From Alphaproteobacteria bacterium (lineage in GTDB: Bacteria; Pseudomonadota; Alphaproteobacteria; Sphingomonadales; JAKSBY01), in the NCBI GenBank assembly GCA_021774625.1, contig JAJFIV010000008.1, positions 111,392 to 175,391 on the forward strand: a stretch of DNA of 64,000 nucleotides, read 5' to 3'. Within the stretch, counting starts at the first letter, position 1, and the number at the start of each line of letters is the position of its first letter. Positions 6,480-64,000 of the stretch are shown here, in pieces. A program made the translations under genes and the position numbers. The notes under the pieces are model-generated. The model did not search any database. It saw only the letters and a list, made by a program, of their open reading frames with translations, and was not told where the DNA came from.

Positions 6480-6660
6480 CGCGCACCGGTAATAGCAATC
6501 CCCTATCTGACGCTCTCAATCAAATACTGGTACCGCGTCCCTGCGATTGGGTCCGGCGCAGGGTTGGGCTGCATCATCCTTGGCATTATCACGGCAATAT
6601 TTAACATCCTGCCATATCCTGACAGGGAACCTGTAAACCCTCCTTGGATTTAGGGGCGGC

Positions 6661-49000: not shown

Positions 49001-49190
49001 ACCACCCCGTTCATCCTGAGGAGCACAGTGAAACTCTTCCCCACCGTTCGGGCACTCAGGGCGAACGGCGGGGCTGGTTGCAAAGGAATGAAAGCCGTTC
49101 GGGCTGAGTGTTGCGCAGCAACGTATCGAAGTGCGGGGCTATTTCCGCCCTTCGATATGCTTTCCAGGCACTCAGGGCGAACGGGGGTGG
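49001..49190. repeat. Composite REP-like repeat element (locus B) with nested hairpins
   Basis: An 18-nt direct repeat GGCACTCAGGGCGAACGG occurs at 49051-68 and 49167-84. Hairpins CCGTTCG/CGAACGG (49044-50/49062-68) and ATCGAAG/CTTCGAT (49125-31/49150-56). Cores are shared with the loci at 9284-9395 and 13750-13832. Confidence 0.6.
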
Positions 49191-49226
49191 TTAAGTCAGA
49201 TTCTCTTTGATCGTCCGTATTTTCCG

Positions 49227-49799
49227 CTATTTCTTGCGGGAGATACGCGCGACTTCGCGCTCCACCATGTCTTCGACAATGCGTGGCAGATTCTGATCGA
49301 GATACGCTTTCAGCATTGGCTTCAGCATTTCGCGGACCAATGCTTCCAGGGTATTGCCGTCGCCTTCATAACCGGCAACCATGACCGCCGACAATTCGGC
49401 AAAGGACGCTCCGGCCAGCTGCTCCGTTGCATCGGAAACCAGCGTATCGGGCGGCGCGGCCGGCGGCGAGGGTTCGGCCGCCTCTGCTGGCTCCGGTTCC
49501 GGCTCTTCTTCTGCGACGTCACTCAGCTCCAGAATGTCGTCTTCTGCCTCCTCTTCCATCTCGGGCTCCGGTTCAGGTTCAATCTCCGGCTCGGGATCGG
49601 GCTCCGGTTCCGGCTCAGTATCAGGTTCTTCAGCGGCTTCCGGTTCCGGCTCGGGATCAGGTTCCGCAGCCGCTTCCGGTTCAGCCACCGCTTCTGCCCC
49701 TTCGTTACCGGCTTCCTCGCCATCTTCCGATATAATACGGCGAATGGAGGCAAGAATCTCTTCCATTGTCGGTTCTGACTGGTCCTTGGGGTCGCTCAT
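49227..49799 (-). CDS. popZ: PopZ-like pole-organizing protein (DUF2497)
   Basis: The N-terminus EPTMEEILASIRRIISEDG and C-terminus LEALVREMLKPMLKAYLDQNLPRIVEDMVEREVARISR match the conserved termini of Caulobacter PopZ as I recall them. The middle is a Pro/Glu-rich acidic linker. Confidence 0.8.
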   Translation of the reverse strand: MSDPKDQSEPTMEEILASIRRIISEDGEEAGNEGAEAVAEPEAAAEPDPEPEPEAAEEPDTEPEPEPDPEPEIEPEPEPEMEEEAEDDILELSDVAEEEPEPEPAEAAEPSPPAAPPDTLVSDATEQLAGASFAELSAVMVAGYEGDGNTLEALVREMLKPMLKAYLDQNLPRIVEDMVEREVARISRKK

Positions 49800-49922
49800 G
49801 AAGCCTAACTCTAAAACTGGTTATCCCGAAACATTATTCGATAATGCGCCGCCGCATTATAAACTATCAAACATTAACCATTTATTTTCAAGCTTCACAG
49901 CGAACGCGAGCCGAAGAATCGT

Positions 49923-51338
49923 TTACTCCGTCCCCCAGCCGACAAGCTGCCATTTTATATCATTATAATATTCTGTCGGGTCGTAAATTTCCACCGGCAG
50001 ATCCAATGCTATGGCGTTCAAGCGGCCGAGGGCAGACAACAGTGTGAAACCGGCGATATATACATCGCGCTCGGCCGTCACCAGATTGACCCGTGAATTC
50101 AAAAGCGCCTGTTCGGCATCCAGAACATCCAGTGTTGTTCGCGAACCGACCGCGGCTTCCTGACGAACACCATCCAGGGCAATTTCATTTGCATTCACCT
50201 GGGACCGGTTGGATTCCGTGCTGGCAACTGCAGCCCGATAAAGTTCCCAGCCGTTGCGGACCAGTTCCTGCACCTGTCTTTCCGCTTCCCTGATCTGCAA
50301 AATCCGCTGGCTTTTTATCTGCTTAGCCCGCCGGATGTCTGAATATTCCGCGCCCGACTGATAAAGCGGGACAACCAGTTGGAGGCCATAGCTGCGTGAC
50401 CTTCTGCTATTTCTCGCGCCCACGAAGCCATTGATTATAGGATCGAAGGTAAGCGACGGCGATTTGCCCTGATCGAATTGAGCAAATCCATCAATTGTTG
50501 GCAACAGCGCCCCTTTTGCCCCTTTTACAGCAAACTTGGCCGCTTCCTCGTTATAGACAGCAGCCGTGATAATGGGATTTTCCGCCTTCGCGACGGCTTG
50601 CGCCTCATCATGTGTGGCCGGGAATGTGGGCAGGGGCGGAGCTGAATCCAGCGTACCGGGATAGTCACCTGTAGCCCGCTGGTACGCCGCACGGCTGACT
50701 TCCAGATTTGCCTCGGCCTGAATGCGGGAGGAAACGGCGCCCGCCAGCGCGGCTTCCGATTGCGCCACATCGGTCCGGGTGATTTCGCCGACCCTGAACC
50801 GGTCATTGCTGGCTTCCAGCTGGCGTTCTAGGACCTGCACATTGTTATTGTTCAGGTCCAGAACGGCCGTATCGCGAATGACATTCATATACGCCGTAAC
50901 CGTATCGGTCAGCACCTGCTGTTCGGTTGACAGCAACTGGGCCCGCCCGGATTTTACGACACTGTCATTCTCCCTTTTGCTGTTATAGTCCCGGAAACCA
51001 TTAAAAACGGACTGGTCGAGCCGCGCCTGAAAGCTCTGGTTTCGCCCGACGATTGTGGTGTCGTTCACAACGCGGCCGTCGTCGGTTCTGGTTGTCAAAG
51101 AATTCGTATCGGAACGCGATACATTGGCCGAGCCTTGCAACCTCGGCAAAAAACCGCTGAGCGAGCGGGCAACGGATTCATCGGTCGCCCTCAGGGCCGC
51201 GCGCTGCGCCTGTAAAGTCGGGTTGCCGACATAGGCCTTTGCGAGCGCCTCCCGCAAATCCTCTGCGCTGGCCGGAGCCGAGAAACAGGATATGGCCGCA
51301 GTTATCGCCATGACTGACGTTGTTATTTTATACTTCAT
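49923..51338 (-). CDS. tolC: TolC family outer-membrane efflux protein
   Basis: Signal peptide; duplicated OEP repeat pattern (LREALAKAYVGNPTLQAQRAAL...; NPIITAAVYNEEAAKFAV...). Confidence 0.9.
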   Translation of the reverse strand: MKYKITTSVMAITAAISCFSAPASAEDLREALAKAYVGNPTLQAQRAALRATDESVARSLSGFLPRLQGSANVSRSDTNSLTTRTDDGRVVNDTTIVGRNQSFQARLDQSVFNGFRDYNSKRENDSVVKSGRAQLLSTEQQVLTDTVTAYMNVIRDTAVLDLNNNNVQVLERQLEASNDRFRVGEITRTDVAQSEAALAGAVSSRIQAEANLEVSRAAYQRATGDYPGTLDSAPPLPTFPATHDEAQAVAKAENPIITAAVYNEEAAKFAVKGAKGALLPTIDGFAQFDQGKSPSLTFDPIINGFVGARNSRRSRSYGLQLVVPLYQSGAEYSDIRRAKQIKSQRILQIREAERQVQELVRNGWELYRAAVASTESNRSQVNANEIALDGVRQEAAVGSRTTLDVLDAEQALLNSRVNLVTAERDVYIAGFTLLSALGRLNAIALDLPVEIYDPTEYYNDIKWQLVGWGTE

Positions 51339-51439
51339 AAGTTTTCCTCGCTATCGTAAGCCCGGCTTTGCAGGCGATTGTTATAGTTAATGGTTCTTAA
51401 CATTGTCTTTCATCTGCTCCCGTCAAATATCACAGATAT

Positions 51440-52093
51440 TTAAAATTGAAATACCGGTGGTTTTGCAAAACCGGGCAAAAGCGGCACCCCGGCATCGAAC
51501 AGATCACGTCCGCCAAGCACATTGCCGGATTTAATGGCGACATGCCCGCGGCCCAACCCGTTCCGGTTAAAAACGCAAACTAGACGGCCGCCGTCCGCCA
51601 GCTGATCCGTCAATGCTTCCGGGATGTGATCGACCGCACCGTTGAGGAAAATGACGCTGAAGGGGCCCTGTTTCGAAACACCCTCCGTGAGTTTGCCGGT
51701 TACTACCGCCGCATTGACAGCTTCGGACTCTGAAAGCTTATCGGTTGCCAGCTCTGCAAGCTCTTCATTTTCTTCAAGCGCGACCACCGCATCGGCAAGC
51801 TTCGCCATCACAGCCGTGGAATAGCCGGTGCCGCATCCGACATCGAGAACGAGATCGTCAGGGCCGATATTGGCCGCTTCCAGAAGCCGGGCAAAAACCA
51901 TCGGCTCCATCAGATAACGGCCGTCCGCTATCTCGATATCTTCATCGACATAGGCAATCCCCCGTTTCGACTTCGGCACGAACATTTCACGGGGAACGGA
52001 CCCTATCGCATCAATGATCCGCTCATTCGTGACTTTGTTGGGCTTTATCTGCCCGGCAATCATTGTTTTTCGTAATGTGTTAGTATCGATCAT
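51440..52093 (-). CDS. pcm: Protein-L-isoaspartate O-methyltransferase
   Basis: VPREMFVP, SAM-binding VLDVGCGTGYSTAVMA. Confidence 0.9.
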   Translation of the reverse strand: MIDTNTLRKTMIAGQIKPNKVTNERIIDAIGSVPREMFVPKSKRGIAYVDEDIEIADGRYLMEPMVFARLLEAANIGPDDLVLDVGCGTGYSTAVMAKLADAVVALEENEELAELATDKLSESEAVNAAVVTGKLTEGVSKQGPFSVIFLNGAVDHIPEALTDQLADGGRLVCVFNRNGLGRGHVAIKSGNVLGGRDLFDAGVPLLPGFAKPPVFQF

Positions 52094-52324
52094 ATTTTCA
52101 TCGGACTTAGGAGTTTCGCTTTCGGAGATATAATCATTAACCGACTGGATGACAACGATTTACACGCTAAAGGGCCATTAATATAGTCATTCCCATGCTT
52201 ATTTTACGCAGGAATGACTATTTCCCGACGGCGGAGATGAAAAATTTATTCGCGACATTCAGCGATTGCACGATGCAGACCGCTTTGATATACCCATCCG
52301 CCAGCCACAGACCGGCAAGACAGA

Positions 52325-52398
52325 GGCGCGGTGGCGGAGTGGCTACGCAGAGGACTGCAAATCCTTGCACACCGGTTCGATTCCGGTCCGCGCCTCCA
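52325..52398 (+). tRNA. tRNA-Cys (GCA)
   Basis: Cloverleaf by hand: acceptor GGCGCGG/CCGCGCC, 3-bp D stem GCG/CGC, anticodon stem GAGGA/TCCTT with loop CTGCAAA, T arm ACCGG-TTCGATT-CCGGT, discriminator T, encoded CCA. Confidence 0.9.
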
Positions 52399-54073
52399 AC
52401 TTTTCGCGGCCGATCCCGCGATAGATTTCCATAATGTCGGCAAATACGGATTCGGCGGTGGGCCAGCGGCCTACGCCTTCGCCATTGACGATGGTTTTTT
52501 TTCCGGATTCTGTGGTGACAACCAGCCTGTTGCGGGCATTTTTTACGCCGGCAAGGTCGCTGCCAGCATCAATCCGCATCAGGCTGACGGAGCCATGAAG
52601 AATGCCATCCTCCTGCCAGCAGGCGGCGACGTGGCGCAGCGTTCCGCTTAATCCTCCGGTATTTTCGATGCCGCCAATCCGCAGATTTTCCGGCGGAATA
52701 TCCCGGCCAAAGGCATGGCGGGCAAGGATTGAGAGTTTTGCGGCGGCGTCGAGCCCGTTAATATCGCGGCCTGGATCAGCCTCGGCATAGCCCTTTTCCT
52801 GAGCGGATGCGAGCGCCGTGCCGAAATCAGCACCCTGATCCAACTGATGCAAAATAAAGTTGCCGGTGCCGTTCAGAATGCCGTCAAGACGCTGGATTCC
52901 TTCATTTTCACAGGCCGTATCGACCGCTTCTATCGCACAAGCCCCGCCACCAACTGATGCTGAATAACAAAGGGTTACACCGTTTCCCTCAGATAAATAT
53001 TTAAGAATATTCCAATGACCAGCGATCATATCCTTGTTCGCGGTCACTACATGAATTCCCTGTTCCAGGGCGCGGCCGGCAATATCCAGCGCGGGATTTA
53101 TGCCGCCGATGGTTTCCACCAGCATATCGATACCAGCTGACAGGGCCTGTTCCGGATCGGTTGAAAAAAGCGCCGGCGCGATGCCAAGACCGGTGTAATT
53201 TCCGGGTTGCCGGACAATAATTTTGACGATCTCAAAACGTTCCGGTTCTTTGGCAAGATGCTGATAAACGCCATAGCCAACGGTTCCAAGGCCCAGCAGG
53301 GCAACCCGAACAGCTCGTTTGGGGCTGCCGGCGGCCATTACGGACGGCTGATCGCCGATGATGGTTTCATCAGCCGACCCCGCACAAGAAACGATAACAG
53401 GAAATTCATGGCGCCGGGCGTAGTCTATGGCCTTCGGCTGCACCAGCTGACCAGCAACCCGGGTGGCGTCGGCCCAGCTGGCGCGGGCGTATTTCCGGGG
53501 GCGCGGCCCGGATATCGCCGGATCCCATTCATAAAGCCCGTCCACATCCTTGAGCAGGCGGCATTCCTTCGCGCCAAATCTGCTGGCCAGAAAAATAGCG
53601 CTCAGGTCTGACCCGCCCCGGCCTAGAAGCGACATTTTACCGTCCTCGCCAATGCCGAAAAAACCCGGAAAGACCACGACATCACATGCGGCCAGATGCT
53701 GTTTCAGGGCGGCTTCATCAATACCGGCCGGCTCGCCGTCCCGATGCGGCCCCCTGATGGTGAAATTCACGTCACACGGGTCGAGCAGGCTGACCGGCAG
53801 TCCCGCCTGTTCAATATATATGGCGAGAAGCGCCGCTGCTTTCCGCTCGGCGCTGGCCAGAAAGGACGCCACCAAATGCCCGCCGGCATCCGGGGAAATT
53901 GCCCCGGCCTGTTCCAGCAGCGTGTCGGTTTCGTCTGCCATGGCGGAAACCACCGCAATAACCCGGCAGCCCTGCCGGGCATAACGATAAATTTCATGCA
54001 CGGCGGACCGCATGTCTTCCGGCTCTTTCAGAACCGAACTGCCAAATTTCAGGACGATCAGGTCAGGGTGCAT
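52343..54073 (-). CDS. Bifunctional aspartokinase (minimal, no ACT domains) / homoserine dehydrogenase fusion, MetL/ThrA-like
   Basis: Aspartokinase motifs VLKFGSSVL, LLGRGGSDLSA, LKDVDGLYEWDP. Homoserine dehydrogenase motifs LLGLGTVGYGV (NAD fold), VVTANKD, GYAEADPGRDINGLDAAAKLSILA. The last 18 codons and the stop (TAG, 52345-43) are antisense to tRNA-Cys. Confidence 0.85.
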   Translation of the reverse strand: MHPDLIVLKFGSSVLKEPEDMRSAVHEIYRYARQGCRVIAVVSAMADETDTLLEQAGAISPDAGGHLVASFLASAERKAAALLAIYIEQAGLPVSLLDPCDVNFTIRGPHRDGEPAGIDEAALKQHLAACDVVVFPGFFGIGEDGKMSLLGRGGSDLSAIFLASRFGAKECRLLKDVDGLYEWDPAISGPRPRKYARASWADATRVAGQLVQPKAIDYARRHEFPVIVSCAGSADETIIGDQPSVMAAGSPKRAVRVALLGLGTVGYGVYQHLAKEPERFEIVKIIVRQPGNYTGLGIAPALFSTDPEQALSAGIDMLVETIGGINPALDIAGRALEQGIHVVTANKDMIAGHWNILKYLSEGNGVTLCYSASVGGGACAIEAVDTACENEGIQRLDGILNGTGNFILHQLDQGADFGTALASAQEKGYAEADPGRDINGLDAAAKLSILARHAFGRDIPPENLRIGGIENTGGLSGTLRHVAACWQEDGILHGSVSLMRIDAGSDLAGVKNARNRLVVTTESGKKTIVNGEGVGRWPTAESVFADIMEIYRGIGREKLEARTGIEPVCKDLQSSA

Positions 54074-54293
54074 ACCAGCCTCTTGAATTTAGCTGACTTG
54101 ACCCGTTTTGCGCAAAAAAATACCTGTTCCACAAGATGCGAAGCAGGCTTTGCTCCGCTTTAGCAGTATTTATTTCGCGCCCGCAAGCTGAAGGTCAAAT
54201 CGGCGCACTTTCAATTTAACTATCCACTAACCCCGTCTTCTGTCAATAAAAAATGCTTGACGGATGTTTCCTGTCAGCGTTACATGCCGCCAT

Positions 54294-54410
54294 TACTCAT
54301 CGAGACCGGCTGAGGGATAGGCCCAGTGACGCCGGGGCAACCATTAAAGCTAACCCCTTTGATAAGGTGCCAACTCCTACGGGGACAGATGTCCACCGGC
54401 AGATGAGAGA
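54294..54410 (+). promoter_or_regulatory. SAM-I (S-box) riboswitch aptamer in the metX-metB leader
   Basis: P1 CTCATC (54296-301) / GATGAG (54403-408). GAGA-CCGGCT-GAGGGA-TAGGCCCAGTGACGCCGGGGCAACC matches the S-box core. P3 ATTAAAG/CTTTGAT. AAGGTGCCAACTCC matches the conserved junction. P4 GGGGAC-AGAT-GTCC. A possible promoter TTGACG-N17-TTACAT lies at 54257-54285. Confidence 0.8.
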
Positions 54411-54519
54411 AGCCGATAGAAGCCGGATTATATCCGGTGGTGGATCGGCCCCTCCTTCGCGGTTTTCCGTATGAGCTCCTGATGAGCTTAGCCCGATAAA
54501 GGCAACGGAGAACCAGCAA

Positions 54520-55548
54520 ATGCTCGCCAAAAAAAACAGCCCCGTATGCGCCTTCGATTTTATCGAACAGCCGCGCTATATTTTACCGGAAATCGTCGAT
54601 ATCGACTCGGTGATCGCGCTGCCGCCGGATTTTCGTCTTGCCGCGGGAGACCGCGCGCCCGCTGAATTGCGCTGCCGGCTGGTTGGCCCTGAAGGTGCGC
54701 CGGTCATTGTGGTCCTTGGCGGGATTTCCGCGGACCGTCATACGATTGACGCTTTGGATGGCGCGCCTGGCTGGTGGCGGAAGTTTGCCGGCGCCGGACG
54801 CGCCATTGACATCCGAAAATACCGCATCCTTTCTTTTGATTACATCACGCCGGACGCACCGGTCGCAGAGCGCATTCCGGCCGTTTCGACCCTTGACCAG
54901 GCGCGGGTCCTCGCCTTCCTGCTTGATCATCTGGGCCTTGCCAGGGTCCGTTGTTTTATCGGCTCCTCCTATGGCGGAATGATCGGTCTGGCCTTTGCTG
55001 CGGCCTATCCCGGACGGCTTGATCATCTGATCGCCATTTCCGCGGGGGATTATCCGCACCCCATGGCAACGGCCTGGCGGACGGTTCAGCGGCAGATTGT
55101 CCGGCTCGGCCTGAAATCCGGCCAGGCCAGGGCGGGATTGGCCCTCGCCCGTCAGCTCGCCATGACCACGTATCGCTCGCATGAGGAATTCGCCGCCCGC
55201 TTTTCAAGCATCCCCGCCTGCGACGGCGCATTCCCTGTTGAAGGCTATCTGAAAGCGCAGGGGAATAAATTCACTGACCGGATGTCGCCGGAGCGCTTTC
55301 TGGCGCTTTCGTTATCCATCGACCTGCATCACGTTGACGCCACCGCCATTACGGCGCCGGTGACATTGATCGCAAGCACGTCCGATCAAATCGTCCCGCC
55401 GGGCCAAATGCAACGACTGGCAAAAAAAATTCCAGGGCCCTGCAGTTTGGCGGCAATCCCATCCGTTTTCGGCCATGACGCCTTTCTGAAGGAAACCGGC
55501 GGCATCAGCCCGATTATCATCAAGACCCTTGAGGAGTTACCGGTATGA
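54520..55548 (+). CDS. metX: Homoserine O-acyltransferase (MetX family, short form)
   Basis: Alpha/beta hydrolase with VLGGISADRH, GWW, nucleophile GSSYGGM, acid STSDQIVP, His GHDAFL. Sits downstream of a SAM riboswitch and upstream of metB. Confidence 0.8.
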   Translation: MLAKKNSPVCAFDFIEQPRYILPEIVDIDSVIALPPDFRLAAGDRAPAELRCRLVGPEGAPVIVVLGGISADRHTIDALDGAPGWWRKFAGAGRAIDIRKYRILSFDYITPDAPVAERIPAVSTLDQARVLAFLLDHLGLARVRCFIGSSYGGMIGLAFAAAYPGRLDHLIAISAGDYPHPMATAWRTVQRQIVRLGLKSGQARAGLALARQLAMTTYRSHEEFAARFSSIPACDGAFPVEGYLKAQGNKFTDRMSPERFLALSLSIDLHHVDATAITAPVTLIASTSDQIVPPGQMQRLAKKIPGPCSLAAIPSVFGHDAFLKETGGISPIIIKTLEELPV

Positions 55549-56738
55549 CCAACGACACCAGGAATATTGAAACCCGGACTGTCCGCGCCGCTGTCGGCGG
55601 CGATACGGCGCACGGCGCAGTTATGCCGCCGCTTTATCTCTCCACCAATTTCACCTTTGCCGGCTTCGATCAGAAGCGTGACTATGACTATACCCGGTCC
55701 GGCAATCCGACCCGGGATGCCTTTGGCGACGCGCTGGCGAAGCTGGAAGGAGGCGCGGGCTGTGTCGTGACCTCTTCCGGCATGGCCGCCATTCATCTGA
55801 TCTGTCAGTTGCTGCGCCCCGGTGATCTTCTGATCGCCCCCCATGACTGTTATGGCGGCACCTGCCGTCTGTTGAATGCCGCCCGGCGCAAAAGGCATTT
55901 CGATGTCGCCTATATCGATCAGAATGACCCGGCGGCGCTTGATGCGGCGCTGGCGGGAAAACCGAAACTGATTCTCGTGGAAACGCCGTCCAATCCGCTG
56001 TTGCGTATTGTCGATGTCAGGGCCATTTGTGAAAAGGCGAAAACCGCGGGTTCGCTGGTGGCGGCCGACAACACCTTCCTGTCCCCCGCGCTGCAAAAGC
56101 CGCTGAAACTGGGGGCCGACATTGTTCTTCATTCCACCACAAAATATATTAACGGCCATTCCGATATTGTCGGCGGCGCGGTCATTGCCAAGGACCCGGC
56201 GCTGCAGGATGAACTGGGCTGGTGGGGAAATTGTCTGGGCCTGACCGGCGCGCCGTTTGACAGCTTCCTGGCCTTGCGCGGGCTGCGCACTCTTTTTGTC
56301 CGCATCCGTCAGCAGGAAGCCACCACTCAAAAGGTCGCCGCCGCGCTGGTGCGGCATCCGCGGGTGGAAAAGGTCTATTATCCCGGCCTGCCGGACCATC
56401 CCGGCCATGCCGTTGCCGTCTCGCAGCAATCCGGGTTCGGGGCCATGCTGAGTTTTGAACTGGATGACGGCGGCGGCAATATCCCGGCTTTCCTCAAGGC
56501 GCTTGCATGTTTCTCGCTTGCTGAATCCCTGGGCGGGGTGGAAAGCCTGATCGCCCATCCGGCCACCATGACCCACGCAGCCATGGAACCCGGTGAGCGG
56601 ATCAGGGCCGGGATTGGCGATAATCTGCTGCGGCTCTCAATCGGGCTTGAGGATGCGGAGGATCTGATTGACGATCTGACCCACGCCCTGGATTTAGTGA
56701 CGGACCGGCGGGGCAGGAAAAACCTGGCAGTGGTTTAA
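55545..56738 (+). CDS. metB: Cystathionine gamma-synthase / O-succinylhomoserine (thiol)-lyase, PLP-dependent
   Basis: Close by-eye colinearity with E. coli MetB (YTRSGNPTRD, APHDCYGGT, ETPSNPLLR, HSTTKYINGHSD with the PLP Lys, LAESLGGVESLIAHPATMTHA). 4-nt overlap with metX. A MetZ assignment cannot be excluded. Confidence 0.88.
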   Translation: MTNDTRNIETRTVRAAVGGDTAHGAVMPPLYLSTNFTFAGFDQKRDYDYTRSGNPTRDAFGDALAKLEGGAGCVVTSSGMAAIHLICQLLRPGDLLIAPHDCYGGTCRLLNAARRKRHFDVAYIDQNDPAALDAALAGKPKLILVETPSNPLLRIVDVRAICEKAKTAGSLVAADNTFLSPALQKPLKLGADIVLHSTTKYINGHSDIVGGAVIAKDPALQDELGWWGNCLGLTGAPFDSFLALRGLRTLFVRIRQQEATTQKVAAALVRHPRVEKVYYPGLPDHPGHAVAVSQQSGFGAMLSFELDDGGGNIPAFLKALACFSLAESLGGVESLIAHPATMTHAAMEPGERIRAGIGDNLLRLSIGLEDAEDLIDDLTHALDLVTDRRGRKNLAVV

Positions 56739-56811
56739 TCTTTTCAACAGCCCTGCTATGGCGTAGGCTGCGGCTGCTATTGCAACCGGTATCCAACAAT
56801 CGGGGGGGCTT

Positions 56812-58431
56812 ATGCCAAATATTCTACGCAGGCTGTCTTTGCTGGCAGCAATCAGCGCCGCGCTTCTGGCCGCGCCATCGGGTTTCGCGCAGGATTCCCC
56901 TGCAGCTGCGGTCGATCCGGCGCCGAACCGCGCTGAAGGCGACGGTCCTTTTGACCGGCTGGTGATCCGCGGCGGATATCTGATTGACGGCACCGGCGCG
57001 CCGCTTCAGGGCCCGGTCGATATTGTCGTTGAAAATAATAGAATCACCGAAGTGCGCGTTGTCGGCTCGCCGAAAGTGCCCATTGATCCGGAAGGCAGAC
57101 CCGAGCCCGGTCAGCGGGAAATTGATGCGCAAGGCATGTATATCCTGCCCGGTTTTATCAACGCCCATGCCCATGTCAGCAATCCCGGTCAGGCCCGGTT
57201 CGGCAAAGCGGCCCCCGCCGAATATGCCTATAAACTCTGGATGGGCCATGGCGTCACCACCGCCCGTGTGGTCGGCACCGGGGTCAGCCGCGAATGGGCA
57301 CTGCGTGAAAAAACCCGCAGCATCTCCAGCGCCATTACGGCCCCGCGTCTGTCCTATCACATGAGTTTCCCTGGCGGCATGACGCCGGATGAGGCCCGCA
57401 TCTGGGTGCGGGATCTCGCCCGCGACGGCGCCGACGGCATCAAGTTTTTCGGCGGCCCGCCGGATGTCATGGAAGCGGCCATTGACGAAGCCAACAAACG
57501 CGGCCTGAAGACCGCCATGCATCACGCCCAGCTGGCGGTCACCCGCTGGAATGTGCTGGATTCGGCCCGCGCCGGTCTGACCTCCATGGAACACTGGTAC
57601 GGCCTGCCTGAGGCGTTGTTTGAAGACAGGCGCATCCAGCATTATCCGGCCGATTACGTTTATCACGACGAACAGCACCGCTTTGGCGAGGCCGGACGGC
57701 TGTGGCGGCAAGCGGCAAAACCCTATTCCGAAAAATGGAATGCGGTGATGGAGGAATTGCTCAGCCTGGATTTCACGCTCGATCCGACCTTCACCATTTA
57801 TGAAGCGGCCCGCGATGTGATGGCCGCCCGGACCCAGGAATGGCTGGCCGATTACACCTGGCCGACCCTGGAACGTTTCTTCCGCCCCAGCCGGGTCGCG
57901 CACGGCTCGTTCTGGTTTGATTGGACCACCCAGGATGAGATTGACTGGAAGGAAAATTACCGGCTGTGGATGACCTTCATCAATGAATATAAAAACCGCG
58001 GCGGCCGGGTCACCGTCGGCGATGATGCCGGCTTTATCTATAAGCTTTATGGCTTTGGTTATATCCGCGAATTCGAGCTGTTGCAGGAAGCCGGCTTTCA
58101 CCCGCTGGAGGTGATCACCGCCGCGACCCTGCATGGCGCGGAACTGCTTGGCCGGGACGCCGACATCGGCACCGTCGAGAAAGGCAAGCTTGCCGATCTC
58201 ATTATAGTGCCGGAAAACCCCTTGCAGAATTTCAAAACCCTGTATGGCACCGGCGCCGTGCGCCTCAATGATGAAACCGATCAGGTGGAACGCGTCGGCG
58301 GCGTGCGCTGGACCATCAAGGACGGCATTGTTTATGACGCCCGCGGGCTGCTGCAGGACATCCGGCAGATGGTCGCGGATGAGCATGTGCGGGAAGCGGA
58401 AATGACGCAATCATCGACGGAGAGCGAATAA
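56812..58431 (+). CDS. Secreted amidohydrolase family protein
   Basis: Signal peptide; PGFINAHAHV metal-binding motif and a C-terminal amidohydrolase pattern (GKLADLIIV). Confidence 0.85.
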   Translation: MPNILRRLSLLAAISAALLAAPSGFAQDSPAAAVDPAPNRAEGDGPFDRLVIRGGYLIDGTGAPLQGPVDIVVENNRITEVRVVGSPKVPIDPEGRPEPGQREIDAQGMYILPGFINAHAHVSNPGQARFGKAAPAEYAYKLWMGHGVTTARVVGTGVSREWALREKTRSISSAITAPRLSYHMSFPGGMTPDEARIWVRDLARDGADGIKFFGGPPDVMEAAIDEANKRGLKTAMHHAQLAVTRWNVLDSARAGLTSMEHWYGLPEALFEDRRIQHYPADYVYHDEQHRFGEAGRLWRQAAKPYSEKWNAVMEELLSLDFTLDPTFTIYEAARDVMAARTQEWLADYTWPTLERFFRPSRVAHGSFWFDWTTQDEIDWKENYRLWMTFINEYKNRGGRVTVGDDAGFIYKLYGFGYIREFELLQEAGFHPLEVITAATLHGAELLGRDADIGTVEKGKLADLIIVPENPLQNFKTLYGTGAVRLNDETDQVERVGGVRWTIKDGIVYDARGLLQDIRQMVADEHVREAEMTQSSTESE

Positions 58432-58537
58432 AAATAATTTCCTGCTTGGCAGGGCGGAAATTCCTTTGCTATAAGGGCCGCCGCTGTAAAGCGCACGAGT
58501 TTCACGGGCGGCGCGCAAGATTGCGCATATCCCCTGA

Positions 58538-58613
58538 TCCCCGGTAGCTCAGTTGGTAGAGCAGGCGGCTGTTAACCGCCTTGTCGCTGGTTCGAGTCCG
58601 GCCCGGGGAGCCA
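58538..58613 (+). tRNA. tRNA-Asn (GTT)
   Basis: Acceptor TCCCCGG/CCGGGGA, D arm GCTC-AGTTGGTA-GAGC, anticodon stem GGCGG/CCGCC with loop CTGTTAA, T arm GCTGG-TTCGAGT-CCGGC, discriminator G, encoded CCA. Confidence 0.92.
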
Positions 58614-58618
58614 AAAAA

Positions 58619-58650
58619 GCCCGGAAGGTATAATGCCTTCCGGGTTTTGT
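58619..58650 (+). terminator. Rho-independent terminator after tRNA-Asn
   Basis: CCCGGAAGG (58620-28) / CCTTCCGGG (58636-44), 7-nt loop, then TTTTGTCTTTTT. Confidence 0.75.
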
Positions 58651-58875
58651 CTTTTTACATGCAAATGCATCGACATCTTTCATGAAAACCCCGGACATCA
58701 GAAACTGTTGCTGGCCGATTCGGGCAATCTGCGGCTTTTGCAGCGGCGGAACTTCCGGTTTCCATCTCGGGAATTTTTCGAACAGGCCGCTCTTTCAACA
58801 ACAATCGCAAGGGAGACCGTATCAATAACCGCGATGCCTGAGCGTATTTCCATGCAGAATAGGGAAATCTGGCAA

Positions 58876-58937: not shown

Positions 58938-61028
58938 TTATTCAGCTCCTGCCCCGGAAGCGACTTCTGTTTCAGCGCCACCCTTATCCTCATGCGCCGG
59001 GTCATACATTTTGAACCACTTCATCAGATAGAGCTGACGGCGGAGATAGTTGGAGGGGATGGAGCCGGTGCCGTGATACTCGCCCTTCACTTCGAGATAT
59101 TTGGTCGGCACGCCGAGATATTTCAGGATCGCATACATCTGCTTGCCCTGCTGATCCGGGGTCCGGCGGTCGAGATCGCCGGCCATGAACAAGGTCGGCG
59201 TGGTCACATTTTCCGAATGCATGATCGCCGAATGCTCGTACCATTGGGTCGGATCTTCCCAGAACGGCTTTTCAAAGAAATTGATCATCCAGCCCGACAC
59301 ATCCGTCGTGCCCACCATGCCGATCCAGTCGGTGACCGGGCAACGGGAAACTGCCGCCTTAAAGCGGTCTGTATGAGTAATTACCCATGCGGTCAGAATG
59401 CCGCCGCCGGAACAGCCAGTGACAAACATCCGGTTTTCATCCACATAACCCTGATCGATCATATAATCCACGCCGCCCATCAGATCCGCGAAATCACGGG
59501 GACCGGGATAGATATTCTCGATGGCGGCGGCGAAATCCTCGCCGTAACCGGTCGAGCCGCGGGGATTGGTGAACAGCACCACATAGCCTTCGGCGGCAAA
59601 ATGGTGGAACATGAAATTATAGGCCGAGCGATACATGCCATGTGGACCGCCATGGATCATTAGAACCAGAGGATATTTTTTCGACGAATCGAAGTCCGGC
59701 GGCAGCACGGCCCAGCCCTGAGCCCGGGTGCCTTCGGTCGAATCATACCAGAATTCTATGGTTTCCGATTGATCCACGCCCGCCAGCACATCGCCGTTCA
59801 CATTGGTCAGCCGGGTGAAATTACCGCCATCCGCGAGGTCGAAACGAACGACATCCGGCATTATATCGGCAGTGGTCTGGGTCCCCACCGCAATGCGGCC
59901 GCGGTCGGAAACATTGGAAAGGAAAATATTCTGATCCCCTGTCGTTACGTCGCGCACATTGCCGTTCATGCCGGTATAGTGAATGTTGCGGTCGCCTTCC
60001 TTGTCGAGCGCAAAGTAAATACCGCGCGAATTGGCGGCCCAGGTCAGCGACGCCGGGTCCGACGCAAGATCGCCCGCAACGCGGCGCTGACCGGTTCCGT
60101 CCGCATTCACCACGTAAAGATTCGAATGCCGATAACTCATGACCGATTCGTGGTAGGCCGTGAACGCAATCATCTCGCCATTGGGTGAGAAGACCGGGCT
60201 GCGCGCGCCGATGCTGTTATCGGTCAGTTGAGTGACTTCACCCGAACCCACATCGACTGCATAAATATAGCTTTCGGTAAAACGGCGGCCGTCATCTTCC
60301 TCGGCCAGACCGTCAAAGGTAATCTTGCTGCCGTCAGGCGACCAGGAAAGGTCGGCAGGTCCGCGAATGGCGCCCAACCCGCGGCCGTTGGCATGCCAGT
60401 TGCCATGGGTGATCTGGCGCGGCGTGCCCCCGTCAGCCGTGACCACAAAAATATGATCATAGCCGTTATTCATCGGGCCGATGCGATCCTGGTGCCAGAG
60501 AAAGGTTTCAATCACCAGCGGGTCCTCTTTCCATTTGGCGCCGGCAGGCTTGCCGGGAAGCTTCACTGTAAAGTCTGACTTGTGTGGCACCCGTGACATA
60601 AAGGCGATTTCCTGCCCATTCGGCGACCAGAAAATACCGCGCGGTTCTTCCGTTCCATAAGTGACCTGGCTGATCGCCCCTTCATTATCCATCCAGCGGA
60701 TAAAAATCTGCGGCTTGCCGGCATCATCCGGGGCGATAAAGGCAAGGCGTGAACCATCCGGCGACCACCGGGCGTTGCCGCCCTTGTCCAGCAGTTGCCG
60801 GTTTCTCGTCCCGTCTGCATTCATGATCCAGAGGGCCGCTGAGCGCCCATCCTTCATTTTATCGATATGCGAGCGGGTATAGATAATTTTCGACCCATCC
60901 GGCGAAATCTGCGGATCGCCCACAGATTCAATATCCAGATAGGTTTCAAGTTTCAGATTATCCGCAAAAGCCGTGCCTATCGGCAGAATTAGCAAAGCGG
61001 CCAGCGCTGTCAGAATGCGTCGCGACAT
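58938..61028 (-). CDS. Secreted S9 family serine peptidase (beta-propeller plus prolyl-oligopeptidase catalytic domain)
   Basis: RBS AGGAGGGA. Signal peptide MSRRILTALAALLILPIGTAFA. PD40-like repeats; catalytic GCSGGG (GxSxG); GGPHG. Confidence 0.9.
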   Translation of the reverse strand: MSRRILTALAALLILPIGTAFADNLKLETYLDIESVGDPQISPDGSKIIYTRSHIDKMKDGRSAALWIMNADGTRNRQLLDKGGNARWSPDGSRLAFIAPDDAGKPQIFIRWMDNEGAISQVTYGTEEPRGIFWSPNGQEIAFMSRVPHKSDFTVKLPGKPAGAKWKEDPLVIETFLWHQDRIGPMNNGYDHIFVVTADGGTPRQITHGNWHANGRGLGAIRGPADLSWSPDGSKITFDGLAEEDDGRRFTESYIYAVDVGSGEVTQLTDNSIGARSPVFSPNGEMIAFTAYHESVMSYRHSNLYVVNADGTGQRRVAGDLASDPASLTWAANSRGIYFALDKEGDRNIHYTGMNGNVRDVTTGDQNIFLSNVSDRGRIAVGTQTTADIMPDVVRFDLADGGNFTRLTNVNGDVLAGVDQSETIEFWYDSTEGTRAQGWAVLPPDFDSSKKYPLVLMIHGGPHGMYRSAYNFMFHHFAAEGYVVLFTNPRGSTGYGEDFAAAIENIYPGPRDFADLMGGVDYMIDQGYVDENRMFVTGCSGGGILTAWVITHTDRFKAAVSRCPVTDWIGMVGTTDVSGWMINFFEKPFWEDPTQWYEHSAIMHSENVTTPTLFMAGDLDRRTPDQQGKQMYAILKYLGVPTKYLEVKGEYHGTGSIPSNYLRRQLYLMKWFKMYDPAHEDKGGAETEVASGAGAE

Positions 61029-61093
61029 GGTTTCCCTCCTGTTGAGACTCGTGATCAAAGGAGAATAGCGGAGATTAAGCCTGAACGGAAGCA

Positions 61094-63298
61094 TTAAGGG
61101 GACGTCCTGAATGAGTAAAGTGTAGCAGACCTGACAGCATCTAAGGTTTCGAGGGGGGGCTTTTTGAGATATTTTGACTGTTCCAGCGCCTTTTTAGCTG
61201 CTTCACCAAAAACCAGTGGCGGGTAGGATTCTATCAATTGAACATCCATTGGGTCTCCATCATCGTCCACAACGAACTCATACACCGCCCATCCCTGAAT
61301 CCCCGCTCGGAGCGCATCTTTCGGATAAAGTGGTATTCTCATTTTGTCTGCATATGCCTTCCATTTCAGATCGTTGCCGGCGGTTGGCCCGGCGGATGCA
61401 TAAGCAAAATACTCAGATGCTTTAGCTTTTTCATCGTTTTCAAGAGCGATGTCTCCCAATCCCATATACGCGAAACGTCTTATGGGGCTTGTCTCATCCA
61501 AATACGCCACAGGCAAATCTGTAATACGCTGCAGAATTGGCTTTGCCGCCCCAAGCCCGTCTGCCCTGATTTTGCTTTCCGCCAAAATCGCAAGAGCCCG
61601 GGCCATAGTGCTGGATTCCACCGAATTGCTTTGATCGACCATGGTCAAAATATCGTTAAGATGGTCTTCGGCTGTATCTCTATTCCATTGATATCGCCCC
61701 GAAAAATATATACCGACATTCAACTTGGCTTGCATAATCTCCATGCGTGGCCGTTGATACTCTTCCAAAATTTCTATCAAGCGTTCAAACTGATTAAATG
61801 CTTTTCGATCATGGCCGACCAAGGCAGCACAATATGCATAATCCCAGTGGGCGCCAACTACCATATCTTCCGGGACTGCCGCGGATTTTTCCGCTACCTT
61901 GATTGCGCGCCTCAAGTACCTCTGGGCCGTATTGGAATCCGTAGCCAGGATAGCGAGGCGGCCTATATTCCTATAATATGCAACGAGTTCCGGTGCATCA
62001 ACACCAAGAGCGTTTCGTGCAACATCCGTTGCCTTGAGGTATTGGTCAATAAGCGCCGTTATATCGCCAGGCTTGTCAAAATCTGCTTCGAGTGCGAGTG
62101 CTTCAATTGAAGCCAGTTCCTTCTGCAACGCAGGATCAGCTCTGGATTCAAGAGGCAACAGTTCTTCTACATCGCCAAAATCAGTTACCCTCCATGTATT
62201 TTCACGGAGTTCACGAAGTTGTGGTGACATACATCCCAACTGCAACCGAACACCAGCCCGTTTTGCAAATTCCATCTTTGTGAATTCGGTCGGAAACCGC
62301 CAGTCTTTCATGACCTCGTATATGGATCTTTCATCAACACCAGTTGGTGATGAATAAATGATAGCGGGGTCAGCTGCAGAGCCATCTTCTGTGATACTGA
62401 ATTCAACGACTGTGGATGTGTAGATTGGGAGCCCCGCCTGATCCACTGAACATGTTGGTAATTTTACCTTAAAGTCGGTGAATTTCTTAGGTTGGATAAT
62501 GCCAACACCGGCCTTGGTATAATTGGTGACCATGTCATCTTCTCGACCCATTAAACCATACAAAAGGCCGGTATCCTGCAGGTAACTGCGCATGAGCCAT
62601 GTTATGGCTGCTTTTTTGAAACTAATGTTTTTTCTGGCGTCGATGTAAAGTTGCTCGGCATCATCAAGATTGCCATGCACCAACTCAAGCCGTGCCCTTA
62701 GAATTTTTGTGAGGGCACGGCGGGTATCATCACGGGCAAAATGTTTGTCGGCCAGCCGTTTGGCTTCATCCAGGCTGCGACGAGCCCCTTCATAATCGGG
62801 TAGCATAGCAATGCTTGCATAGTTGAAATGAGCCTGGAACAGTTTTTCCGGCGCCGCAGCCGGATTCTTTTCATATATTCTTAGTGCAAGCGCGGACATA
62901 TCCTTCGCACTCTGAAAATCAAACAGCGCCTTTTGAACCGAAGCTACATTGGTGGCCATTGCGGCCAGATCGGGGCTATCTTTAGGAAGTCTTTTTTCCA
63001 GAATGCGCCATGCAGCCTGAAAGAGAGGCTCCGCCTCGTCATATTCTGCGAGGCCGAAATAAATATTCCCCAAGGAATTGGCCAGATAACCATAATCCTC
63101 GCCATGTTCCCCATAAAGGCTGACATACGATTCAAGCGCCTGTTCCGCTAATGGCTGCGCTTCAGCAAATTTACCTTCACTCAATAGCGCATTGGATTTA
63201 TAAAAACCGTCAAGCCATTCATCGTCAGGGGATGGAACATCTTCAGCAAAAACAGGTTTGATCAATAACAAGGAAATAATAAAGATTAAGAAACGCAT
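61094..63298 (-). CDS. Secreted TPR-like repeat protein with two TonB-C-terminal-like domains
   Basis: Start at MRFLIFIISLLLIKPVFA (63298). Helical-repeat regions. Internal TVVEFSITEDGSAADPAIIYSSP...VMKDWRF and C-terminal YPKDALRAGIQGWAVYEFVVDDDGDPMDVQLIESYPPLVFGEAAKKAL resemble TonB_C. GC is about 42-50% in three hand-counted 60-nt samples, against about 57% in a uvrB sample. Confidence 0.75.
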   Translation of the reverse strand: MRFLIFIISLLLIKPVFAEDVPSPDDEWLDGFYKSNALLSEGKFAEAQPLAEQALESYVSLYGEHGEDYGYLANSLGNIYFGLAEYDEAEPLFQAAWRILEKRLPKDSPDLAAMATNVASVQKALFDFQSAKDMSALALRIYEKNPAAAPEKLFQAHFNYASIAMLPDYEGARRSLDEAKRLADKHFARDDTRRALTKILRARLELVHGNLDDAEQLYIDARKNISFKKAAITWLMRSYLQDTGLLYGLMGREDDMVTNYTKAGVGIIQPKKFTDFKVKLPTCSVDQAGLPIYTSTVVEFSITEDGSAADPAIIYSSPTGVDERSIYEVMKDWRFPTEFTKMEFAKRAGVRLQLGCMSPQLRELRENTWRVTDFGDVEELLPLESRADPALQKELASIEALALEADFDKPGDITALIDQYLKATDVARNALGVDAPELVAYYRNIGRLAILATDSNTAQRYLRRAIKVAEKSAAVPEDMVVGAHWDYAYCAALVGHDRKAFNQFERLIEILEEYQRPRMEIMQAKLNVGIYFSGRYQWNRDTAEDHLNDILTMVDQSNSVESSTMARALAILAESKIRADGLGAAKPILQRITDLPVAYLDETSPIRRFAYMGLGDIALENDEKAKASEYFAYASAGPTAGNDLKWKAYADKMRIPLYPKDALRAGIQGWAVYEFVVDDDGDPMDVQLIESYPPLVFGEAAKKALEQSKYLKKPPLETLDAVRSATLYSFRTSP

Positions 63299-63378
63299 AA
63301 CCACCCTCCCACGCTTGCTTGGCCGATATTTACCAAACTCAGGGTGGCATGACAATAGAATGCCTTATTAAATCGCCA

Positions 63379-63750
63379 TTACCCTTTCTGCAAATCCTGA
63401 AACAGCATCAGTCCGTTGCCGTCCGGATCGAAAAAGGTCAGCAGTTTGACCATGCCCTCGATCACCATGATGTCGCCGTCAAAAGCCACATCATGTTCGG
63501 CCAGGGACGCTTTTGCCTCTTCGATGTCGACAACGCCCCATGTGGGAACGGGTCCGCCGGCCGGCACTTCCTCCACCTGTCCGAGGCCAATATTGACTTT
63601 TTCCACCGGCGAGGACAGCTCGCACCAGCCCCTGTCTTCCAGTTTATATAACAGCTCACAGCCGAGAACCTTTTGATACCAGTCAATGGACCGGTCGAGA
63701 TCGGTCACCTTCATGGCGATCGTCAAACCCGGATCATAATTCAGCCCCAT
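63379..63750 (-). CDS. VOC (glyoxalase) family protein
   Basis: IAMKVTDLDRSIDWYQKVLGCEL...LTFFDPDGNGLMLFQ. Confidence 0.8.
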   Translation of the reverse strand: MGLNYDPGLTIAMKVTDLDRSIDWYQKVLGCELLYKLEDRGWCELSSPVEKVNIGLGQVEEVPAGGPVPTWGVVDIEEAKASLAEHDVAFDGDIMVIEGMVKLLTFFDPDGNGLMLFQDLQKG

Positions 63751-64000
63751 ATTTACCTCCGCTTTTTTACCGCCTGTTTCAGCGCTCTTCCGAAAATAGG
63801 CCTTTAGTTAGTCTGATATTTATACTATGTATATTTTTGATTTTGCAAGCAAGATTTCGCTCTGCCCGCAGCCCGGTTATTACAAATATACAGCGGTCAT
63901 CGGTAAGCCGGCAGAGCCATAATTGTGTAGGACTTTGCGTGAGTTTCGACTTTTTAATCCAATTGACCCACAGGCGCTGGGCGCTGGAAATTTTAGCCGT

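Follow-up and report, generated by a model that had tools for sequence, protein, structure and literature searches.

Genomic islands and integration hot spots associated with tRNA genes arise where an integrase inserts DNA into the 3' portion of a tRNA gene. In prokaryotic genes, loss or shift of a stop codon gives C-terminal extensions. ThrA and MetL of Escherichia coli (about 810–820 aa) join aspartokinase and homoserine dehydrogenase in one chain, carry ACT regulatory domains and are linked to methionine and threonine synthesis. Typical annotated convergent overlaps involve two CDSs and a few bases. Long antiparallel overlaps are, at least in one preprint, characterised as rare and often doubtful (bioRxiv 10.1101/724807). 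In the literature searched, no bacterial CDS is described whose end lies antisense within a tRNA gene, and the arrangement described here has no direct precedent there.

In the window (the whole stretch of 64,000 nucleotides that was analysed), the gene of an aspartokinase–homoserine dehydrogenase fusion (AK-HSDH) and the tRNA-Cys gene share their 3' ends, as convergent overlapping pairs do. Unlike in typical annotated cases, the partner is a tRNA gene and the overlap measures 56 nt (52343..52398, both strands), or 76% of tRNA-Cys. The shared segment covers, in antisense, the acceptor 3' strand, the T arm, the variable loop, the anticodon arm and part of the D arm. It comprises the TAG stop (52345–52343), 17 full codons (E560–A576) and, from the codon for L559, 2 nt. 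The translated ORF ends in ...EIYRGIGREKLEARTGIEPVCKDLQSSA. ORF 52343..54073 is the sole long minus-strand ORF at the site. The 56-nt convergent overlap claimed in the first-pass annotation is borne out by ARAGORN, Rfam and the ORF list, and its count of 18 antisense codons is right to within one partial codon. The first in-frame stop in antisense tRNA-Cys is a TAG or TAA supplied by the reverse complement of the D-loop. The length of 56 nt is therefore not a product of chance, and for the same reason stray ORFs of other genomes terminate at the identical −56 position inside tRNA-Cys.

tRNA-Cys (GCA anticodon; 52325..52398, +) is intact as read from its sequence and appears to keep a conserved promoter-like element. 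It is recognised by ARAGORN and scores 60.9 bits with RF00005 (gathering score 29) as a cloverleaf with compensated stems. The 3' end reads ...CCGCGCC-T-CCA, with a U73 discriminator and encoded CCA; U73 is an identity element for CysRS. Two compensatory changes set the stems apart from those of Iodidimonas muriae (locus L003): the acceptor pair is G4:C69 in place of C:G, and a T-stem pair is A:T in place of G:C. Compared with tRNA-Cys of the closest contig, L002, the sequence has a single base difference. The element TTGCAC–17 nt–TATACC (52266..52294, +), read from the sequence, is the presumed promoter, and the arrangement TTGC...GCTTTGcTATA is also present upstream of tRNA-Cys in L002, L003, L005 and L011. 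The first 8 nt past the CCA are ACTTTTCG, akin to the pyrimidine-rich trailers of relatives; trailers in other lineages are GATTTTCGG, TATTTTCGA and ACTTTTTC.

The AK-HSDH CDS (52343..54073, −) encodes 576 aa. Pfam domains are AA_kinase PF00696 (residues 5–228), NAD_binding_3 PF03447 (261–370) and Homoserine_dh PF00742 (381–548), so that the kinase domain precedes the NAD-binding and catalytic domains of homoserine dehydrogenase in a single chain. The order of catalytic domains and the link to methionine and threonine synthesis are those of ThrA and MetL of E. coli. Unlike these, the protein is short, gives no Pfam match to an ACT domain and is apparently under SAM-II riboswitch control. The NCBIfam homoserine dehydrogenase subfamily model NF004976 is exceeded (241 bits, cut-off 205; match ends at residue 555). 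The ThrA/MetL equivalog models NF006959 (166 bits, cut-off 726) and NF007003 (111 bits, cut-off 582) are missed by a wide margin. By domain content and these scores, AK-HSDH is a member of a separate short fusion family and not a ThrA/MetL equivalog. Homologues number more than 5000, and the best non-self match has 44–46% identity. Short fusions of this kind that lack ACT domains are about 560–620 aa in length and usually lie beside metX and/or a Cys_Met_Meta_PP gene. No tRNA gene lies near the AK-HSDH homologues on the large contigs L006, L007 and L008; a neighbouring tRNA gene is therefore no family trait.

Conservation of the family, in an alignment of 21 members, continues through ...GRWPTAESVFADIMEIYR552 and then ends. 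The R552 codon (52418–52420) is 19 nt from the end of tRNA-Cys and 24 residues before the C-terminus, in agreement with the earlier claim of a non-conserved tail of about 20 aa. The tail G553–A576 (24 codons; 52346..52417, −), delimited by alignment and pLDDT, has no alignable counterpart in homologues, whose own tails past the conserved motif are about 5–45 residues long and unalignable. The AlphaFold model, built with the same alignment, has a mean pLDDT of 89.9 and a pTM of 0.87; values for the last three ten-residue blocks are 74, 57 and 60. Every invariant residue of the family alignment is kept. Judged by these residues and by a model that is confident except in the last blocks, the enzyme appears functional and its tail an appendage. 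Since tails of about 5–45 residues are tolerated in the family and the model is of low confidence over the new one, the latter is most likely a neutral or nearly neutral addition.

As in stop-loss extensions, the native AK-HSDH stop is gone, the ORF extends through once non-coding or foreign DNA to the next in-frame stop, and the added peptide is unconserved and poorly modelled. The loss of the original stop claimed in the first-pass annotation stands: native tail and stop were evidently lost at a junction by the tRNA trailer. Unlike in stop-loss extensions, the tail enters a functional RNA gene on the opposite strand. Since the extension runs into a tRNA gene, 51 of its coding bases would be fixed by tRNA selection and not by protein selection.

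The gap between tRNA-Cys and tRNA-Asn in the window is 6139 nt. The AK-HSDH leader carries a probable SAM-II riboswitch (SAM_alpha, RF00521; 54139..54216, −). The match is of full length and scores 27.3 bits (E = 4e-4, search over 601 nt of the window), below the gathering score of 36, whereas the element at the equivalent place in contig L089 scores 41.8 bits and passes; the window element is graded as probable only on this account. A promoter scan places a promoter-like site ahead of it (54246..54219, −). A SAM-I riboswitch (54294..54409, +; RF00162, 82.3 bits) lies upstream of metX, and SAM-I is also present in L089, L090 and L166. Two SAM riboswitch classes thus stand back to back in one divergent intergenic region (54074..54519), SAM-I facing metX-metB and SAM-II facing AK-HSDH; the same is seen at 6649..6944 of L089. 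Genes that follow are metX, for homoserine O-succinyltransferase (54520..55548, +; NF006449, 337 bits, cut-off 296), metB, for cystathionine gamma-synthase (55545..56738, +; TIGR02080, 588 bits, cut-off 504.55), and, last in the segment, an amidohydrolase-family gene (56812..58431, +; Pfam Amidohydro_1 and Amidohydro_3) for which no NCBIfam model reaches its cut-off. The closest MetX (P0245, 69% identity) is encoded on a 1998-bp contig that stops short of the junction.

The segment has a sharp right edge. The stop codon of the amidohydrolase gene is at 58431, and the boundary is marked by the conserved tRNA-Asn element resembling a promoter (TTGGCA–18 nt–TATAAG; 58446..58475, +), which begins at 58446. 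A cTTGGCA...TATA element precedes tRNA-Asn in L002, L003, L005, L010, L011 and L015. tRNA-Asn (GTT; 58538..58613, +) is recognised by ARAGORN and Rfam (65.4 bits) and is followed by a terminator-like hairpin (58616..58648, inverted repeat I19). The independent Logan contig L001 ends at 58561, inside tRNA-Asn, and this break suggests that the genome has tRNA-Asn at another place too. In several relatives (L041, L045, L050) two tRNA-Asn copies lie near the locus.

On the other side of tRNA-Cys, the PCMT gene (51440..52093, −) is given as 207 aa in the NCBI-derived entry and as 217 aa in the Logan call; its start is uncertain. The DUF2497 protein (49227..49799, −) has a long acidic Glu/Pro-rich repeat region (EPEPEP...), which accounts for long spurious ORFs opposite the gene and in its other frames. 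A few kb to the right of tRNA-Asn, at about 60500..64000, GC drops from about 0.56 to 0.47–0.49 over ORF 61094..63355 (−; TPR and TonB_C domains) and beyond; this part is a possible foreign segment.

TolC homologues put the organism near Iodidimonas and Rhodothalassiaceae (57–63% identity), with L002 (63%), L003 and L005 (58–59%) as nearest relatives. Loci with TolC-PCMT-tRNA-Cys were collected by a TolC alignment scan and contig look-ups, which gave 72 alphaproteobacterial loci. TolC-PCMT-tRNA-Cys-tRNA-Asn is a conserved block across Alphaproteobacteria. A co-oriented tRNA-Asn is present downstream in 45 of the 72; the gap between the tRNA genes is 4–250 nt in 25 of these, 409–535 nt in three, and 0.8–8 kb with varied unrelated genes in 17. 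In I. muriae and L005 the order is valS, DUF2497, TolC, PCMT, tRNA-Cys, tRNA-Asn, with gaps of 171 and 164 nt, respectively. In L002 two glycosyltransferase genes lie between the tRNA genes. The spacer genes of the surveyed loci code, among others, for glycosyltransferases, for ManC, for a fatty-acid hydroxylase and for an integrase. Real convergent genes end 2–37 nt from the 3' end of tRNA-Cys in L018, L014, L042, L002 and L016; that of L018 is a Phage_integrase gene (tyrosine recombinase) and ends at 2 nt. From the variable sizes and contents of the gap, the tRNA-Cys/tRNA-Asn spacer is a recurrent insertion site across Alphaproteobacteria, and the window is an occupied case.

Other ORFs ending at −56 in tRNA-Cys were found in L062 (473 aa), L088 (257 aa), L078 (202 aa) and L002 (233 aa) and rejected as spurious. 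They resemble Arg/Gly/Pro-rich or antisense ORFs; those of L062, L088 and L078 have no Pfam domain. With these set aside, the window holds the only domain-supported overlap among the 72 loci, the other 71 having none. JGI metagenome contigs were scanned for the same junction (tRNA 3' end followed by antisense 'xEIYR' codons within 8–38 nt): 74 contigs matched, none had AK-HSDH next to the tRNA, and the single tblastn match among them covers only the tRNA-derived tail. No relative was found by a contig scan with the single AK-HSDH protein. The overlap of AK-HSDH with tRNA-Cys is real and lineage-specific.

The methionine module has one comparator with AK-HSDH between the same two tRNA genes, the AT-rich contig L089 (ENA ERZ27247721). 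Its order is tRNA-Cys, a 367-aa gene that has no Pfam domain, an AraC fragment, an MlrC/M81-family gene, AK-HSDH, SAM-II, SAM-I, metX, metB, an M28 peptidase gene and tRNA-Asn. The AK-HSDH of L089 (P0031) is 41% identical to the window protein and keeps its own stop, which precedes the MlrC-family gene by 81 nt and is about 4 kb away from tRNA-Cys. L090 and L091 (from a MAG labelled Sphingomonadales) have the same order minus AK-HSDH. In all three contigs about 4–5 kb, including the MlrC-family gene and the 367/368-aa gene, separate the module from tRNA-Cys. An NJ tree of 120 family members, constructed without support values, groups the window AK-HSDH with P0031 and with P0075 of L166. The module AK-HSDH, SAM-I, metX, metB stands in a different genomic setting in L166; it recurs in unrelated settings. 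The occurrence of the same module between the same tRNA genes in a distant relative argues that the 6.1-kb inter-tRNA segment is old and not a recent island.

The overlap is probably a genuine, lineage-specific side effect of rearrangement in this old variable locus. tRNA-Cys and tRNA-Asn are ancestral neighbours in Alphaproteobacteria, downstream of and divergent from PCMT-TolC, and foreign or relocated genes have repeatedly entered the short spacer that separates them. In this lineage and in at least one distant relative, the spacer carries a SAM-controlled methionine module, with SAM-II and AK-HSDH on one strand and SAM-I, metX and metB on the opposite one. Most probably by deletion, a subsequent event in this genome would have cleared the whole interval from the tRNA-Cys trailer to the AK-HSDH gene, together with the native variable C-terminal tail and stop codon of AK-HSDH. 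The limits of the event would be the essential tRNA and, at the other end, the last conserved helix of the enzyme (...ADIMEIYR552), and it would have survived because it spared both. Translation would then run on through about 7 junction/trailer codons and 17 tRNA-antisense codons to the D-loop TAG. Because the 8 nt that follow the CCA resemble the tRNA-Cys trailers of relatives, the junction of native gene and tRNA flank is placed, with probability, between about 52407 and 52417. A recombination junction at the tRNA trailer is present under either history, deletion or original insertion. The later deletion or rearrangement is favoured since the L089 module lies about 4 kb off, its AK-HSDH stop kept.

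Several points count against a later deletion. L089, the sole comparator with AK-HSDH at the locus, is distant (41%, AT-rich), and its MlrC-family and hypothetical genes could be a later insertion in the L089 lineage, in which case the window junction would be primary. The nearest TolC relatives (L002, L003, L005) lack the met module between the tRNA genes, which requires either several losses or a horizontal move into the same site. The grouping of the window protein with P0031 and P0075 rests on a tree without support values. The comparators are all from outside the genus, too distant to date the junction. Neutrality of the tail and absence of a regulatory effect are assumptions.

A tRNA-targeting mobile element carrying the met module may instead have integrated directly at the 3' end of tRNA-Cys, the overlap being the original attL and the integrase and attR having decayed; this is rather unlikely, although it has several points in its favour. 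As in tRNA-gene islands, variable DNA starts at the 3' end of tRNA-Cys with an occupancy of 0 to 8 kb among relatives, and in L018 a tyrosine-recombinase gene abuts the same tRNA. Relatives are polymorphic for the presence of inserted DNA at this site (gap of 4 nt to 8 kb, unrelated contents), and the closest TolC relatives are without the module. The identity of AK-HSDH to its homologues does not exceed 46%, and for metX the best named matches come from Acidobacteriota, Gemmatimonadota and Steroidobacteraceae. SAM-I riboswitches are atypical of Alphaproteobacteria. Unlike in tRNA-gene islands, the window has no integrase and no att direct repeat. No recombinase gene is present in 52399–58537, where all ORFs are AK-HSDH, metX, metB or amidohydrolase and no space for an integrase is left, and no homologue of the L018 integrase occurs in the window. 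A second copy of the tRNA-Cys 3' end (23 and 29 nt, up to 3 mismatches) is absent from the 64 kb, and a repeat search over 52300–58700 gave nothing above chance-level families. In composition the inter-tRNA segment is close to its neighbours: GC is 0.58–0.60 (window mean 0.56), and AK-HSDH has a GC3 of 0.61, with 0.58–0.65 in flanking core genes. A small shift is confined to metX, metB and the amidohydrolase gene (GC3 0.67–0.71).

Further differences from tRNA-gene islands concern cargo and boundaries. The segment carries core biosynthetic genes under riboswitch control, a module that a distant relative has as well, and the far end is a second tRNA gene with a conserved promoter, not a partial tRNA copy. 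Island cargo is normally distal to the integrase, without fusion to the tRNA. In L089, L090 and L091 the module is found at the same place between the tRNA genes, about 4–5 kb from tRNA-Cys, and in L089, the orthologous locus with AK-HSDH, that gene stops normally. Of the island proposal in the first-pass annotation, insertion-prone variable DNA 3' of tRNA-Cys is retained, and the classic island attachment site is not: the window has neither an integrase nor room for one, no second copy of the tRNA 3' half occurs in it with 3 or fewer mismatches, and AK-HSDH is not deviant in GC3.

Transcription of tRNA-Cys faces the 3' end of the AK-HSDH gene, as predicted from the layout. No intrinsic terminator was detected on the minus strand between the AK-HSDH stop and PCMT, so the AK-HSDH transcript may read antisense through tRNA-Cys and its promoter into PCMT-TolC. 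A plus-strand terminator candidate at 52525 was rejected as being at chance level (4 found, 3.1 expected). The anti-tRNA segment of the AK-HSDH mRNA is predicted to fold as a mirrored cloverleaf (−61.5 kcal/mol, z = −1.87). It is very improbable that the overlap was selected as an antisense coupling of methionine/threonine synthesis to tRNA-Cys supply, or as an mRNA-protective 3' structure. Equally improbable is a functional overlap in which head-on transcription from the tRNA-Cys promoter, or pairing of the mRNA with the tRNA-Cys precursor, would couple the SAM-II-controlled enzyme to tRNA-Cys production, and in which the mirrored cloverleaf might replace a terminator in forming or stabilising the 3' end of the mRNA. 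Selected coupling would fit the lack of a terminator, the stable fold, the promoter-like elements of the two units facing each other and the use of cysteine by MetB as a cystathionine gamma-synthase. However, the fold has a modest z-score, and any reverse-complemented tRNA would be expected to fold stably; mature tRNA, being abundant, tightly folded and modified, is a poor antisense partner; and L089 runs the same module without overlap. The arrangement is absent from all other genomes and metagenome contigs searched and thus bears no sign of conservation. There is no indication of selection for the overlap.

An artefact of sequencing, assembly or gene calling, or a gene decaying to a pseudogene, is hardly credible: draft assemblies do underlie many genome records and AK-HSDH differs at two near-invariant family positions (K532E, A534V), but position 532 varies in the nearest sequences too (S in P0031, pairwise alignment only, and S in P0093), the 576-codon ORF is intact with all invariant residues and a pTM of 0.87, the Logan assembly of SRR15505516 matches base for base over 49103..58561 (about 9.5 kb), and both other minus-strand frames are open from the conserved gene end to the far side of tRNA-Cys, so that no earlier stop could have been masked by a single-base indel error.

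The locus looks like a combination of two known kinds, a variable region next to a tRNA gene and a stop-loss extension, without a new mechanism. Annotation pipelines that forbid overlaps of CDS and tRNA would truncate AK-HSDH or call it a pseudogene. Were the overlap regulatory, it would count among the rare cases in bacteria in which an mRNA and a tRNA gene act on each other as cis-antisense partners. As a product of rearrangement, it is a clean, datable example of gene-end remodelling at tRNA-flanked hot spots, in which the last 17 residues of AK-HSDH are dictated entirely by the tRNA gene on the other strand.
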